Virus record (IMG/VR): IMGVR_UViG_3300032280_000361
Length of the DNA: 64,000 nt
Source of the DNA: a virus
Taxonomy: Duplodnaviria > Heunggongvirae > Uroviricota > Caudoviricetes
Strand: one strand, 5' to 3'
A program made the position numbers and the translations under genes. Positions 340 to 5,863 of the stretch are shown one piece after another (position 1 is the stretch's first letter; every line of letters starts with the position of its first letter). The notes under the pieces were generated by a model that did no database searches, had not been told where the DNA came from, and was given only the letters and a program-made list of their open reading frames with translations.

Positions 340-1164
340 TTAAGGTAATTTTACAACCTCAATCTTAATCTTAGGAGTATAACCGTCTGGTAGGTTAACT
401 TTAACTCCTTCAAATGATTCTACTTTGCTTTCAAAGTAATTTATCTGTAATATTCTATCGGTAAGATTCATCACCGTTTGAGAAGATGTCCACATTTCAT
501 CGCTTTGTCTTCTCATATTCAATTGTGAATCTGTTTTAAAAAATTCTTTTCTCATTGCCGCAGCTATCTCTGTCCAATCACTTACCTTATCTACTGATTT
601 TTCAGCGGTTGTTTTTCTCATCTTAGAAGATAGATATTTAATTCCATTTGTATATCCTGCATCTGTAAATACGTGTCCATGATTAGTTCTAACTACAGGA
701 CTTTCAGTATTCTGTAATTTAACATCGGGTTTATGCTTTGATGTAGTTTCAATACTAACCATATGTTTAGGAGATGATACAAATGTATGACCTTTTAAAG
801 ATAATGAACTCTTACCCTTATATGTAAGTGCTGCTTTGATTGCGGCCTTAAGAGTAGGTTGTTTGATGATGTTTCTCATCTTATCACCATCAGGACCAGG
901 TTTACCAATCTTCTTAACCAATTTCTTTTCAGCTTCATCGTGCCCAACTAATAAAGCAGAATTGATAACACCGATACCATTTGCATTCATACCCTCACTC
1001 CAATCGGTGATTATATCATGTAAATAAGCAACTTCCACTCCATCTATAATGGTGTGAACTATTTCTAATTTAGGTTTATATGCTCTATCTCTATTTTTTG
1101 CTAGGATAAATTTATCATTAACCTCCTTAGATACGATAATACACTCTGTTACTGGTTTGCTCAT
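340..1164 (-). CDS. Ntn-hydrolase superfamily protein (C45/AAT- or NRDE-like), Cys nucleophile
   Basis: N-terminal C-I-I-V...AKNRDR, WSEGMNANG and VRTNH motifs typical of Cys Ntn hydrolases; Cys8 follows MSKPVTE. Confidence 0.75.
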   Translation of the reverse strand: MSKPVTECIIVSKEVNDKFILAKNRDRAYKPKLEIVHTIIDGVEVAYLHDIITDWSEGMNANGIGVINSALLVGHDEAEKKLVKKIGKPGPDGDKMRNIIKQPTLKAAIKAALTYKGKSSLSLKGHTFVSSPKHMVSIETTSKHKPDVKLQNTESPVVRTNHGHVFTDAGYTNGIKYLSSKMRKTTAEKSVDKVSDWTEIAAAMRKEFFKTDSQLNMRRQSDEMWTSSQTVMNLTDRILQINYFESKVESFEGVKVNLPDGYTPKIKIEVVKLP

Positions 1165-1194: not shown

Positions 1195-1710
1195 TTAAAC
1201 AAATAGATTATGTCTATCAAAGTTATTTTCCAAAACATTTTTCATAGAACCGGCTTCCCATTTCATATCCAATAGATACGCAACTCTAATAGTATCTCCG
1301 GTATTAATAACATTATGTTCTATTCTCTGTGAATCAAACCAATGTATCTTACCATCTTCAAATTTAGTACTATACTCTACATCATCTATTTTGAACCAAT
1401 TTATACATTTCTCATTTGAAATAATAGGGAGTATAAATCTTCTATATTCATGTCCGCCATCTTTATGCCAATTTAATTTCCCAGATGAATGTGTAAAAAA
1501 TAAAAATATATTATCAATTTCCATTCCTTCAAATGCAGGAAGTACTAATTCGTTGAATGTTTTTAATTTAGGAAGTTGATATATCTTATCTAAATTATGC
1601 ATTGAAACATTTGGTGTTTCAATAGAAATTGAGCTGGTATCATACTCAGCTTTTATTTCTTTTAATAATAACTCCGAATCAAACTTTATTTTTGAAGTGT
1701 ATAATTCCAT
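1195..1710 (-). CDS. 2OG-Fe(II) oxygenase, aspartyl/asparaginyl beta-hydroxylase-like
   Basis: HxD (WHKDG), RFILPI, FDSQRIEHNVINTGDTIRV (distal His and 2OG-binding Arg). Confidence 0.75.
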   Translation of the reverse strand: MELYTSKIKFDSELLLKEIKAEYDTSSISIETPNVSMHNLDKIYQLPKLKTFNELVLPAFEGMEIDNIFLFFTHSSGKLNWHKDGGHEYRRFILPIISNEKCINWFKIDDVEYSTKFEDGKIHWFDSQRIEHNVINTGDTIRVAYLLDMKWEAGSMKNVLENNFDRHNLFV

Positions 1711-4700
1711 TATCTACTAAATGTGAATATTCCTAAGATTTGATTCAATGGTGCAAATGCTCCTGTTAATTTATATGTTGCTCCCTTATAAGAGAATACA
1801 ATACCTTCATTCGGTACAATCTTTTCAAACCCACCTAACGCATTTAACCTAGTCAATTCTATTTCTAATTTAGCTAAGTTTTTCGCATCACCGGTTGCTC
1901 TAATAGATGATATAGCAGTTTCTAATCTACCCACCATCTGTTGTTTAGCCGCTTCTGGATTTGCAGTTAAAACCGATGTCATAAATGAAAGTACATCTGC
2001 TCCAACTCCTAAAAATATCTCTTCAAACTTAAGAAGGTTATCCTTTGTTATTTTAGCCTGGTCTTTCTTATCGGTTTGGTCTGCCCACGCTTTTAATTTA
2101 GCATCTTTAATATCAGCTAAACGGAAACTCTTATCACCAAATGCCCATCTCTTAACTAATCCTATCTTTTGTTGTTCATCTAATGAAGATGCATTCTTAT
2201 CTACAAATTGTCTCCACCAAGCTTGATGGTAATCTGCCACTCCATTCTTATCGTTTAATCCAAACTCAGATTGTAGTTTAGCAATCATTCCTAAATAAAC
2301 TGATTGCTTAGCTTTCAAATCTTTGTTAACAGGTAATTTTTGAATTGGGGGCCCTTGTATTGTAAACTTAGATTGAACATCTGCGTTTATCTTTTTAACC
2401 ATTGCCGCCAACTTAGCACCTGCTGCAGGATTTTCTCCTACTGCATCTCCACTTTCATTGTATTCCATTGTTCCATGAAATACTAATAACGATGTACCAT
2501 ATGGAACTACGTTTGTATTCTCTGGATAAATGATTTCACAATTCATAAAACATTTACCATCTTTGAATATATCTTTTTTATCTTTATCGGATAATCCTTT
2601 TACCGCTGATTCCAAATCTTTAATTGCAAAACTAAATGCATCGGATACAGAACCTCTACCAGCAAACTTACTGATTACATCCTGAACTCCCATTGCATCT
2701 TTACCTTTACTCTTTAGATGTGATTTGTTTCTCGCTGCTACTAATCTTCCGTTGACCCAACTAATAGCCAATGCCTGCCCATCTGTTTTCTCTCTCGCTA
2801 ATTCTAACTTACCACTCAATGCTTTCTTAACAATATTTTTTAAATCACCAAATGTAAGATTCATCTGTACATCAAATGGATGGTTCATGTGACCGTATGC
2901 GCCACCTTCTAATAATAAAGATTCGTTTATTGATTCGTTTGTAGATTCGTATTTTTTATTCCATACATATTGGAATAACTCACCCCATATAGGTCCATCA
3001 ATTTTACCATTCCACTCGTAATTATATATGGGTTTACTATTAAGTGATTTGCCAGTTTTATTAAGAGCGGTTCTACCCAATCCTTTTACATTAGTAGATT
3101 TTGGTTTTACTAATTTCTTACCACCCCAATTTTTTTCGAGTCCTTTATCCTCTTTGTAGTGTAAAAATATCTGATAACCCCTATTGACGTCTTTAACCTT
3201 ATCCACAATTCTCTGCATTAAATCTTCTACCTTTGGATATTTCTTTAAGAATGTTTCAACTCTATTTGGTTCTATATATCTAGCAACTACTTCGGTTGTG
3301 AATACAGGAGTTGCAGATTTGAAATCCGCTTTTCTCATCACCGTTTTAGCAATCAATTTATTAGCCACTTTGATAAATGCTATATTGATTTTAGAACGAT
3401 TATCCGTTACAACAAACTCTCTATATTTTTGTAAGAATTCTAAGAATTTCTTTTTATTTTTTGCTAATCTTTTAAAGAACCCAGTTAATTCAGCAGGGGA
3501 TATTTCCTTACCATTTCTAGGGTCGTTTAACCTTTGAAAGAAATGGTCGGTTTCTTTTCCTAACTCTACATCTTCTGGACTCATCTGAGAGTCTGCATAT
3601 TTCTCCACAGCATCCATATCAGCTTTCGCCATTTCGAATGCTTTGTGTTTAATCTTATACCATCCACCACCTGGAGTTCTGAATATTCTTGCAGGGATTT
3701 TAAATGTAGAACCTATTGGTAATTTACTCTGATATTGTTTATCTATATGAATTACCTTTGTTATAAATTCTTTTGTTTGGTTATCTGCTCCGAATAACTC
3801 TACTTCTATTTTTACAGGTGTTCCTCCGATTTTAATAGTTCCACCATATAATCCTTTTGTAGGCCCTTCGGTTATATTCTCTATCGTTGAGAGTTTATCA
3901 TAATATTTTGGGTCTTCATACAAATGGTCAAACGCTATTTCCTTCGCTATATTAACATCAGTAGTGTGTTCCATTTCAACTTTCATTCCTTTTTTAAGGT
4001 CTTTTACAATAGTATCAACACTTATATTATGTTTTTTTGCAATATCATTAAGTGTCATTCCTTTCGCTAATCCTCCTGGAATTGTACCTTCCCAAAATCT
4101 TTTTATCTTTTTAACTTTCTTCCCCGCATCCACTTCTTCCCAATCTTCAACTTTATGAGGTTGAATTGCAGGGTCTAAATCCGTTCCTTTAATATTCTGA
4201 ACCTTATAGTATAATTTTCTGAATTGTGATTCTTTATCTTTATATCTACCAACTCCTCTCATCGCATCAGCTCTAGGTTTGTCGATTTGTTTCATTCCTA
4301 ACTGCTTTAGCCACGGCTCAGGTTTACCTCTATCTATAATTCTTAGAGTTCCATCTGGAGTATATCCTGATTCAGGCTCACCATCTGATTCGATTCCGTT
4401 ACTACTGGCTATTTCAGATAATACATCCTCCGATAATTTACCCAATTTAAGAGTAATTAGTTTGAATATCTTTTCATCAAATTTAGGATACGCTTTTAGG
4501 AAATCCTTTTTAGATTGCTCATCTCCTGCTTTTAACCAATTTCTAACCTCAGTTCCACTAATTGGGTTTGATTGAGATGGTGATGCATACACATAACCTT
4601 TATCTCTGTATCCCATTTCTACCTTACCTTTATATGGAGTAAAGTACTTACCACTTAATCTCATTTCATCCTTTTCACCAACTACTGTAATAAACCCAGT

Positions 4701-5018
4701 TGTTTCTTCCGGATAATTAGCCAATACCTCCATCGGTGCGTATGGGTTTCTAACCTCTACTATTTTATTAGAAGGAATACCAAACATCTTCTGCATAATC
4801 ATCTTTTTCTCCCTGAAATTGAATGGAGATTTTTGATTATCAGTTTTATTAGATGTTGCAACGTACACACTATCCTTACCAAATTTCTTTATAAGATTCT
4901 CATAGGTTGCAAAGTGTCCCTTATGAAAAGGTTGAAATCTTCCGGAATATACCACTATGGTCTTCTCTATACCTTCCAAAAGAATCCCGTCCACTAAAAA
5001 TTGAGTTAAACTATTCAT
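1710..5018 (-). CDS. Multidomain protein: HIGH nucleotidyltransferase + DUF5661-like + RelE/PBECR-like + ATP-dependent ligase-like domain; putative virion polyprotein
   Basis: GRFQPFHKGH; KGMKVEMEHT..DHLYEDPKYY; HFFQRLNDPRN..IAKTVMRK; EKTDG/CEII/EGIVF/YKLTG ligase motifs. Start set at MNSLTQF (5018) because a TATTTAT motif lies at 5026-5032; the ORF track gives 5036. Confidence 0.75.
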   Translation of the reverse strand: MNSLTQFLVDGILLEGIEKTIVVYSGRFQPFHKGHFATYENLIKKFGKDSVYVATSNKTDNQKSPFNFREKKMIMQKMFGIPSNKIVEVRNPYAPMEVLANYPEETTGFITVVGEKDEMRLSGKYFTPYKGKVEMGYRDKGYVYASPSQSNPISGTEVRNWLKAGDEQSKKDFLKAYPKFDEKIFKLITLKLGKLSEDVLSEIASSNGIESDGEPESGYTPDGTLRIIDRGKPEPWLKQLGMKQIDKPRADAMRGVGRYKDKESQFRKLYYKVQNIKGTDLDPAIQPHKVEDWEEVDAGKKVKKIKRFWEGTIPGGLAKGMTLNDIAKKHNISVDTIVKDLKKGMKVEMEHTTDVNIAKEIAFDHLYEDPKYYDKLSTIENITEGPTKGLYGGTIKIGGTPVKIEVELFGADNQTKEFITKVIHIDKQYQSKLPIGSTFKIPARIFRTPGGGWYKIKHKAFEMAKADMDAVEKYADSQMSPEDVELGKETDHFFQRLNDPRNGKEISPAELTGFFKRLAKNKKKFLEFLQKYREFVVTDNRSKINIAFIKVANKLIAKTVMRKADFKSATPVFTTEVVARYIEPNRVETFLKKYPKVEDLMQRIVDKVKDVNRGYQIFLHYKEDKGLEKNWGGKKLVKPKSTNVKGLGRTALNKTGKSLNSKPIYNYEWNGKIDGPIWGELFQYVWNKKYESTNESINESLLLEGGAYGHMNHPFDVQMNLTFGDLKNIVKKALSGKLELAREKTDGQALAISWVNGRLVAARNKSHLKSKGKDAMGVQDVISKFAGRGSVSDAFSFAIKDLESAVKGLSDKDKKDIFKDGKCFMNCEIIYPENTNVVPYGTSLLVFHGTMEYNESGDAVGENPAAGAKLAAMVKKINADVQSKFTIQGPPIQKLPVNKDLKAKQSVYLGMIAKLQSEFGLNDKNGVADYHQAWWRQFVDKNASSLDEQQKIGLVKRWAFGDKSFRLADIKDAKLKAWADQTDKKDQAKITKDNLLKFEEIFLGVGADVLSFMTSVLTANPEAAKQQMVGRLETAISSIRATGDAKNLAKLEIELTRLNALGGFEKIVPNEGIVFSYKGATYKLTGAFAPLNQILGIFTFSR

Positions 5019-5025
5019 ATCTCTA

Positions 5026-5032
5026 ATAAATA
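5026..5032 (-). promoter_or_regulatory. Candidate late promoter motif TATTTAT
   Basis: 7 nt upstream of the ATG at 5018. Confidence 0.5.
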
Positions 5033-5863
5033 TCAAAAAGTATCGTATTTATCTTTTATGTAACCATGCAATAATTCCGCAAATTTCATATGAGCAAAAT
5101 AACCAGGATGTAAATCCATAGTAAGTAAGTTGGTATCCTCCGCTATAGTAGTTTTGGTATCAACGGAAAATTGGTGAAAATCTGTATAAAGTTTCTTTCC
5201 TTCCTGTAATTTTAACATATTATTCTTTTTGAATATGGAATCTATACCTATGTTAAATTCTCCCTCAAAAAAAATGAATTTTATATTATTGAACTTAAGA
5301 AATGTTAGGAATGTATCCAATTCTCTTTGTATCTTTGTAAACTCCGTTTTTCTACTGTAGAAATTTTCTAAATAAACCTTAAGATTCTTAACCCCAATTG
5401 TGTCAAAATCCTTATAAGTTTCCTTTGTTGAGTATTTTCTAGTTGCAAAAATGTGGTTACATATCTCATCATTATAATCATTTGAGTTATATTGTATATT
5501 AAATATAATATAATCATTGAGTTTTTTAGAAAATAAATCTAATCTAGCCAATGATGGTAATTCTAATATAAGAAATAACTCATCTCTCTGCTTCCAATTA
5601 TTTTTCACAAAATCATAAGCCATTCGGATACTTCTTCCTGTTCCCCCACCACTTGCAGAATCATTTACAACCTCACACCCAATTATATTAGCTAACCTAT
5701 GCGAATAAGTTACTTCTTCTTGAGTATCCCACCATACATTATATCTATCTTTATAATAATCTCTAACAAAGGTTACATTATCACTCAGAGTAGTAATTAA
5801 CTCTAATCCTCCTCCCGCACTATGAGATGAACCATTACAATAAATTAGCTTTATATTCTTCAC
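5033..5863 (-). CDS. SGNH/GDSL-hydrolase-like protein
   Basis: Block I YCNGSSHSAG, block II NDSASGGG, C-terminal DLHP. Confidence 0.65.
   Translation of the reverse strand: MKNIKLIYCNGSSHSAGGGLELITTLSDNVTFVRDYYKDRYNVWWDTQEEVTYSHRLANIIGCEVVNDSASGGGTGRSIRMAYDFVKNNWKQRDELFLILELPSLARLDLFSKKLNDYIIFNIQYNSNDYNDEICNHIFATRKYSTKETYKDFDTIGVKNLKVYLENFYSRKTEFTKIQRELDTFLTFLKFNNIKFIFFEGEFNIGIDSIFKKNNMLKLQEGKKLYTDFHQFSVDTKTTIAEDTNLLTMDLHPGYFAHMKFAELLHGYIKDKYDTF

Follow-up and report, generated by a model that had tools for sequence, protein, structure and literature searches.

A candidate capsid-addressed cargo polyprotein of a tailed phage with glutamate joints at the borders of exchangeable modules

The T4 proteins IPI, IPII, IPIII and Alt carry a capsid targeting sequence (CTS) and are processed by the prohead protease gp21 (Mullaney and Black 1996, reviewed in PMC9026906 and PMC3012670). 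Prohead proteases of the T4 family cut after glutamate, and the recognized motifs are L/I-X-E in T4 and S/A/G-X-E in phiKZ (PMC9026906, PMC5694885). Polyvalent proteins, in turn, are mosaic multidomain proteins that are predicted to be injected into the host and that usually contain embedded peptidases (Iyer, Burroughs, Anand, de Souza and Aravind 2017, PMC5512222). Here, we analyzed a gene of a large T4-like environmental phage, located on a stretch of 64,000 nucleotides (the window) of the Caudoviricetes virus record IMGVR_UViG_3300032280_000361, which is AT-rich (about 31% GC) and codes almost entirely on the minus strand. We propose, at what we judge to be about an even chance, that this gene encodes a polyvalent cargo protein that is addressed to the capsid and delimited by the prohead protease. 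A literature search on DUF5661, DUF6267 and prohead-protease polyproteins retrieved no description of this family.

The gene had been noticed in an initial annotation as an open reading frame (ORF) from 1710 to 5036 on the minus strand, opening at TTG, and had been interpreted as a virion polyprotein of seven domains with a gp21-type x-x-Glu site at each border. The ORF is present, and ATG 5018 was chosen as the best start because homologs begin with MNSL... or MSEL..., whereas the LIFIRD extension is unconserved and occurs only in alternative gene calls. All residue numbers below refer to this ATG; the TTG numbering is higher by six. An identical protein (P0002) is recorded on a 293-kb contig. 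Every Glu site that had been cited was found in the protein, i.e., ILLE15/G, LSE197, LSE202/I, FWE310/G, ITE384/G, AFE462/M, TTE576/V, INE699/S and LLE704/GGAYGH. The whole protein was modelled with AlphaFold2 (71-sequence alignment, mean predicted local distance difference test score (pLDDT) 72.7). Confident domains were obtained for residues 19-197, 316-380, 386-456 and 707-1102, the region 466-565 was weak (pLDDT 44-67), and low-confidence stretches comprised residues 198-315, 381-385, 457-465, 565-588 and 607-706. Each of the cited Glu sites falls into a low-confidence stretch or into the N-terminal helix. Instead of seven domains, the protein is better described as a leader followed by four folded domains, one weakly modelled module and two disordered modules (M1 to M7, Table 1). 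The latter are the two "unknown domains" of the initial annotation (residues 203-310 and 577-704), which are present but predicted to be largely disordered.

Support for the polyprotein came from the comparison of homologs. The family is large, with more than 2779 matches in a 90%-identity database, lengths from about 470 to 1930 aa, and 7955 clusters at E<=0.001 (818 at E<=1e-30) in a 50%-identity library. More than 2700 homologs of 660-1900 aa retain M1 and M7, and the middle modules are gained, lost, duplicated and swapped at the very borders that had been marked in the window protein. In BLAST comparisons with 119 close homologs, alignments broke recurrently at query residues 310/313, 380-389, 462, 576/578 and 691-699; many homologs exhibited an exact deletion of residues 577-698, and in many residues 231-310 were duplicated. 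The shuffling of domains at the same Glu sites in homologs had been named beforehand as a check of the polyprotein interpretation, and the interpretation came through this check strongly, by the breakpoints as well as by the junction residues.

The Glu stays with the border and not with a particular pair of modules. It precedes the module starts [DG]xIPGG, [GA]xTKG, MAKAD and GGAYGH whichever module stands upstream, in contexts as variable as PFRE/, MKKE/, KIKE/, KLSE/, GLTE/, PVKE/, FVSE/, EMAE/, LFSE/, ILGE/ and others, and the module ends RFWE, AFE, FTTE/YVSE and I(N/T)E are kept regardless of the module that follows. For quantification, distinct upstream 8-mers were counted in 268 sequences. 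The residue before the joint (P1) was Glu at high frequency at each module start (Table 1), and for the pooled distinct junctions in 274 of 333 cases (82%), compared with a background of 6.4%; the non-Glu cases were mostly one-residue offsets. At P3, two residues further upstream, 91% of the 333 junctions had a hydrophobic residue (83% when M7 was left out), compared with 31% in the background, and 73% had Leu or Ile. At the M3 to M5 junctions, the commonest residue at positions P8 to P2 mostly remained below 45%. An analysis that was independent of the previously cited sites used the ends of high-scoring segment pairs (HSPs) from an all-against-all comparison. Where both partners continued into unrelated sequence, Glu was found in both at the terminal column in 14-19% of the cases, compared with 1-9% for the columns up to 12 residues further inside. 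Judged by its residues, the junction logo hydrophobic-x-Glu/(G/A/M/D/I/V) is a relaxed site of the T4 gp21 type. Silent-site conservation at the joints was not general; neither the base preceding the Glu codon nor the use of GAA or GAG departed from the background.

The N-terminus of the family resembles the T4 CTS. The consensus of 95 distinct leaders is M1-x-x-L4-[ST]-x-[FY]7-L8-[VI]-[ED]10-x-[IL]-[LI]-x-E15, and it is conserved down to about 40% identity. IPII and IPIII of T4 start with MKTYQEFIAE/A (read from NC_000866), and the family leader matches them at positions 4, 7, 8 and 10. In T4, the first 10 residues suffice for targeting, for which positions 4 and 7 matter, while residues 8 and 10 matter for processing, and an Asp at position 10 stops cutting, not targeting (PMC9026906). 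The window protein has L4, F7, L8 and D10, followed by ILLE15, and most relatives have Glu at both positions 10 and 15. As Asp10 blocks cutting in T4, the first site of the window protein is probably dead, and, unlike in the T4 leader, the site predicted to be usable is the second one, E15.

The genomic context was read from the related 164-kb genome G001, the polyprotein of which is 89-96% identical, and from IMG/VR loci, with the protease gene lying outside of the window. In G001, the polyprotein gene is followed by genes for proteins of 171, 274 and 222 aa, the large terminase subunit (TerL), the portal protein, proteins of 292, 151 and 254 aa, and the prohead protease (Peptidase_S77, E 7.6e-31, 103.7 bits), and then by genes for a 71-aa protein, an acidic scaffold-like protein and the major capsid protein (Gp23, E 3.1e-77). 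In 80 IMG/VR loci with 58-97% identity in M7, a homolog of the 222-aa protein is encoded about 60 nt after the polyprotein gene and TerL follows, wherever the contig reaches that far. Twenty-five loci have 9 kb or more of downstream sequence; TerL and portal genes were found in all of them, and the S77 protease gene in 24.

Several neighbors of the protease in G001 have N-termini of the same kind. Proteins encoded between portal and protease start with ...REILSE/I and ...EVLQE/E, and the protease itself starts with MKSLLIE/T, resembling MNEPQLLIE/T of T4 gp21. The capsid protein contains ...QQLLSE/ATQTG six residues before the block that aligns just after FLTE/AEIGG of T4 gp23, which we take to be the position at which gp23 is cut. 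Two further phages show reduced or separate versions of the arrangement. The homolog in Microcystis phage Mel-JY01 consists of M1 and M7 only, with a leader ending in ...HIFSE/D and a joint ...NIIAE/GG, and its gene lies a few genes upstream of TerL. Flavobacterium phage immuto encodes a separate 252-aa protein of DUF5661 and M5 (gp190), also upstream of TerL, with a leader of its own, MKKSQLRQIIKE/A, and joints at PNE/IPGG, IEE/MADM and ALE/V.

Three further G001 proteins start with MIRLTEILNE, MIKLSDILSE and MIRITSILSE, and by these starts they look like the counterpart of the T4 internal proteins. They have 182, 189 and 352 aa, are otherwise mutually unrelated and are encoded at G001:C1:126873-130133 (L017:12873-16133, minus strand); Pfam searches with them yielded nothing significant. 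The pattern M..[LIV][STA].[FIYLW][LI].[ED], which was derived post hoc, occurs in the six frames of G001 only at the starts of these three proteins and of the polyprotein. An N-terminal [LIVMF][LIVM]xE was rejected as a genome-wide marker, because with 22 of 196 ORFs it was not enriched over the 9% background and is informative just by the genes that carry it.

The comparison with the described systems reveals similarities to each of them. Like the T4 internal proteins, the polyprotein is basic and has a short leader with the key positions 4, 7, 8 and 10 that ends with hydrophobic-x-Glu, diverse cargo follows the conserved leader, and a T4-type S77 protease, a portal protein and a gp23 capsid protein are encoded in the same phage group. 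Unlike them, it is one 124-kDa chain with internal Glu joints and, in the family, up to seven or more cargo units including large enzymes, whereas T4 has one cargo per gene. With the polyvalent proteins, the family shares many unrelated effector-type domains per chain, a location beside virion and packaging genes, mosaicism between relatives and the predicted injection with the DNA. Typical members of that class include BECR-type RNases and domains that metabolise nucleotides. In contrast to many of its members, no embedded peptidase and no MuF or portal anchor was found in Pfam, PHROG and NCBIfam scans of the polyprotein, features that are common but not obligatory in the class. Release would instead need a trans-acting prohead protease, and entry would need a T4-like leader. 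In phiKZ, 201phi2-1 and SPN3US, a homologous prohead protease likewise requires Glu and little else before the cut, and several cuts are made in some of the head proteins (PMC5694885, PMC10052503). These phages differ in their S/A/G-X-E or A-X-E motifs and long propeptides, and a cassette-swapping enzyme polyprotein is undescribed there.

From these observations we infer packaging, cleavage and ejection of the protein as follows. The gene would be expressed together with the head and packaging genes, and the leader of 10-15 residues would attach the precursor to the prohead's scaffolding core, like the T4 CTS. After its activation, the gp21-type (S77) protease would cut after Glu at hydrophobic-x-Glu. 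Cuts at E15, E197/E202 and E699/E704 would release the nucleotidyltransferase of M1 and the RNA-ligase-fold enzyme of M7, and the looser sites E310, E384, E462 and E576 may separate the small variable modules. The fragments would remain in the head and enter the host with the DNA, where they would act early, against host defences or in the take-over of the cell. They might serve NAD salvage or nucleotidylation and repair or ligate RNA, and one of them is perhaps an RNase. Among related phages, the middle cassettes are swapped, duplicated and lost precisely at the Glu joints.

That the family joins a T4-like leader, mosaic cargo domains and release by a trans-acting prohead protease at Glu joints seems to us an evenly balanced proposition. 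Somewhat more tentatively, large T4-like phages from aquatic environments might use a hitherto undescribed way of loading cargo, in which a targeting leader is combined with a string of unrelated enzymes and mini-proteins, the joints of which are at the same time Glu sites of the protease and borders of cassette exchange; one late gene may then deliver a changeable counter-defence set into the host with the DNA. If this were true, the T4 internal-protein idea would be extended from single small proteins to enzyme arrays in one precursor, and gp21/CTS head biology would be linked to the polyvalent proteins via a readable code, i.e., hydrophobic-x-Glu at the joints. With this code, one could predict from sequence what cargo is encoded in thousands of genomes of uncultured phages, and which modules are likely counter-defence factors of the first minute of infection; it would also offer a naturally occurring rule for designing T4-type capsids that carry several foreign proteins.

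A number of results weigh against this proposal, and they are best discussed together with the explanations that they would favor. The window protein taken alone is weak evidence, because the number of its [LI]xE motifs equals the expectation: it contains 73 Glu and 9 such motifs, and about 10 are expected from its composition. Five of the nine are located in low-confidence or leader regions, which is no more than P=0.07, and site counting in the lone protein was therefore rejected as evidence. Canonical L/I-x-E is confined to E15, E197/E202 and E699/E704, and the inner sites are hydrophobic-x-E at best; we agree with the earlier assessment that FWE, AFE and TTE deviate from the T4 consensus. 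The inner junctions have F, K, V, A or T at P3. This distribution would fit a reading in which the protein were packaged via its leader but stayed essentially one chain, and only the propeptide, and perhaps the canonical sites flanking the enzymes, were processed as in T4 Alt. The inner Glu joints would then be relics of former leaders or linker conventions in cassette exchange. There are precedents, as T4 Alt is trimmed at its ends only (PMC9026906) and the N4 virion RNA polymerase and other polyvalent proteins travel uncut (PMC5512222). However, P1 Glu is kept in 75-90% of the heterologous inner contexts while its neighbors drift, which is difficult to account for unless the Glu itself is selected, and even when M7 is left out, 83% of the junctions retain a hydrophobic P3. 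We regard the uncut chain as quite unlikely.

Other observations question packaging itself. NMNAT-like (nicotinamide mononucleotide adenylyltransferase) enzymes and RNA ligases are normally cytoplasmic. Thirteen homologs lack the leader and start straight at beta-strand 1. One leaderless homolog, P0139 (L105:1263-4754), lies in the usual terminase/portal neighborhood; its start cannot have been miscalled, since there is a stop codon five codons further upstream. Another, P0204 (L102:3641-5485), lies beside NUDIX and DNA-polymerase-exonuclease genes and nevertheless keeps LLLE/GGAFGH; this neighborhood suggests a cytoplasmic two-domain ancestor. About 25% of the distant homologs (50%-identity representatives) carry Cys, Met or Ala and not Glu before GGAYGH, e.g., LLLC/GG, LLQC/GG or LLLM/GG in place of LLxE/GG in P0144, P0164, P0166, P0173, P0176 and others, and one homolog starts with MTELLTE/GGAAGH, so that LLxE-GG may belong to the ligase domain and not be a dedicated cut site. 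Stand-alone M5 and DUF5661 genes are found among early or replication genes in the phages Melnitz (M5 among early genes) and Cr30, and thus, the modules need not be virion proteins. The neighborhood of P0204 and the stand-alone M5 of Melnitz would fit a multidomain enzyme that is never packaged and acts in the cytoplasm, with Glu joints and N-terminal helix serving folding, linkage or recombination, and with the terminase adjacency as mere conserved gene order. The direct fusion of M1 and M7 in Mel-JY01 and many others points in the same direction, as does a codon bias that hints at a joint at the DNA level: in ES[IV]NE linkers, Asn is encoded by AAC in 22 of 26 cases (9 of 12 distinct 15-mers), compared with 31% in the background. 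In contrast, silent-site conservation at the junctions in general is not found, and the leader fits the T4 CTS at its functional positions. Its lower model confidence (pLDDT 60-66 compared with >90 for the following domain) and its lack in the thirteen homologs mark it as an add-on outside of the fold. In addition, terminase, portal and S77 protease genes are adjacent in the 80 loci where the contig suffices, and the junction logo equals the specificity of the protease encoded nearby. A purely cytoplasmic role is thus rather unlikely in our view. It would be very improbable that the modules are made separately without proteolysis, from several genes or from internal starts such as that at E462/M463. 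M5 does open with Met-Ala-Lys like a free N-terminus, and modules do occur as separate genes elsewhere, but the frame is open through all modules in all homologs listed, and the other modules start with Gly, Ile or Val codons. Internal initiation at M463 was rejected, as no Shine-Dalgarno-like sequence precedes ATG 3632. The initial polyprotein interpretation therefore stands in part: homolog shuffling at Glu, the S77 protease, the leader and the flexible linkers speak for it, and the loose inner sites, the replaced Glu and the leaderless homologs speak against it.

Table 1. Position and composition of the polyprotein gene and its parts in the window. For module starts, the number of distinct upstream contexts with Glu at P1 is given.
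Feature	Coordinates	Strand	P1 = Glu at module start	Description
Polyprotein gene	1710..5018	-		1102 aa, 124 kDa, pI 9.4; stop codon 1710-1712
TATTTAT	5026..5032	-		ends 7 nt before the ATG; may be a late promoter or an initiation signal
Leader	4974..5018	-		15 aa, MNSLTQFLVDGILLE, candidate CTS ending with I-L-L-E/G
M1	4413..4973	-		residues 16-202; NMNAT-like HIGH nucleotidyltransferase; ends KLSE197/DVLSE202/
M2	4089..4412	-	39/47	residues 203-310; basic, predicted to be disordered, frequently duplicated in relatives; ends RFWE310/
M3	3867..4088	-	33/44	residues 311-384; DUF5661 helical domain; ends N-I-T-E384/
M4	3633..3866	-	26/34	residues 385-462; small beta-sheet domain; ends K-A-F-E462/
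M5	3291..3632	-	40/44	residues 463-576; conserved module, weak RegB/BECR-RNase hint; ends F-T-T-E576/
M6	2907..3290	-		residues 577-704; basic, mostly disordered, missing in most homologs
M7	1713..2906	-	136/164	residues 705-1102; RNA-ligase (covalent-nucleotidyltransferase) fold with helical insertion

The two retained modules resemble known enzyme folds. M1 is a member of the HIGH-motif nucleotidyltransferase superfamily and is NMNAT-like, confirming the initial annotation. It matches the Pfam family CTP_transf_like (PF01467) with 32.6 bits against a cut-off of 21 (E 1e-7), contains H32-K-G-H35 (HxGH) and ISGTEVR (153-159), and was matched by Foldseek with probability 1.0 to structures of NMNATs, nicotinic acid mononucleotide (NaMN) adenylyltransferases and phosphopantetheine adenylyltransferases (PPATs). 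NMN/NaMN adenylyltransferases have the NMNAT fold in common with M1, and also both motifs, HxGH and ISxTxxR. The scores against equivalog NCBIfam models were all far below the cut-offs. For M7, which was also folded alone (pLDDT 93), the ligase-like character that had been assigned to the C-terminus is supported by a predicted RNA-ligase fold and a conserved KxDG. The best structural matches are RNA ligases, with VIA-align Z scores ranging from 9.0 to 7.0, among them 9.0 for NgrRnl, 8.5 for Trl1, 8.1 for T4 Rnl2, 8.0 for REL1 and 7.7 for T4 Rnl1, while Foldseek E values were just 5e-3 to 0.1. The module contains GGAYGH (705-710), motif I K744-x-D-G, EGIVF (1071-1075) and K1083, and conservation reaches at least 90% for K744, D746, G747, E828, E1071-G1072 and K1083. 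It shares KxDG, EG-hydrophobic and the late Lys with the RNA ligases of T4 (Rnl1/Rnl2), fungi (Trl1) and Naegleria (NgrRnl). M7 differs from the best-matching ligases by about 200 residues that are inserted as helices, and its invariant N-terminal GGxxGHxxHP is not obviously present in them, although no residue-by-residue check was made. M7 had no sequence-level match in PDB or Pfam searches; its Atlas neighbors carry DUF6267. The sequence identity of M1 and M7 to known NMNATs and RNA ligases is 9-19%. The enzymatic roles of M1, M7 and the other modules are thus predictions from motifs and models.

The middle modules did not yield uniform results. M3 had been called DUF5661-like, and PF18905 indeed matched residues 325-380 with 53.8 bits against a cut-off of 27. 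The beta-rich domain of M4 was likewise recovered (residues 386-456, pLDDT about 90); an Atlas search gave no usable named match, and no relatives were recognized. The RelE-like assignment of M5 could not be confirmed. M5 has the invariant residues H, R, D, R, N, K, T and R, and 7 of 32 members gave weak matches to RegB_T4 (PF10715; best E 5.4e-4), but the hhalign probability with T4 RegB was a non-significant 0.13%. The model of M5 was too low in confidence for a fold search, and there was no significant sequence match in the PDB and no usable named match in the Atlas. M6 ends in the linker ESTNE-SINE699-SLLLE704/ (residues 691-704, window 2907-2948). The unit E-S-[IV]-N-E of this linker also occurs in the loci L020-L099. 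DUF5661 is also found in a head-gene region of an unrelated phage family: in Vibrio phage VPs20 (L108, OP056089.1 27628-28896), it lies inside a 422-aa DUF2213 protein encoded between the large terminase and a DUF2184 protein.

The TATTTAT motif that had been noticed before the gene is present (5032-5026), but it lies inside the unconserved TTG extension. In the window, 9 of the 20 coding-strand copies are located at most 40 nt upstream of ORF starts, compared with about 0.7 expected by length. These nine copies (60867, 57708, 50664, 45756, 43767, 42197, 34107, 5032 and 1188) are 11-36 nt before the ORF starts, and the ORFs are mostly genes of the tail/baseplate region, plus the polyprotein gene and the 274-aa neighbor. 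No such copy was found before ORF starts within the sugar/glycosyltransferase block at 5-34 kb of the window. The T4 late promoter TATAAATA was not found upstream of any ORF start in the window. TATTTAT may act as a late promoter or in initiation.

The genes of the 171-aa and 274-aa proteins are inserted between the polyprotein and terminase genes, and most related contigs lack both. The 171-aa protein (window 1195-1710, minus strand) matches Asp/Arg beta-hydroxylases (PF05118, E 6.5e-6). The 274-aa protein (window 340-1164, minus strand) has a weak DUF6641 match and its own TATTTAT at 1188, and its G001 homolog starts with MSKPVTE followed by Cys8. That this neighbor might be an N-terminal nucleophile (Ntn) hydrolase unmasked by the head protease had been put forward as a separate proposal in the initial annotation.

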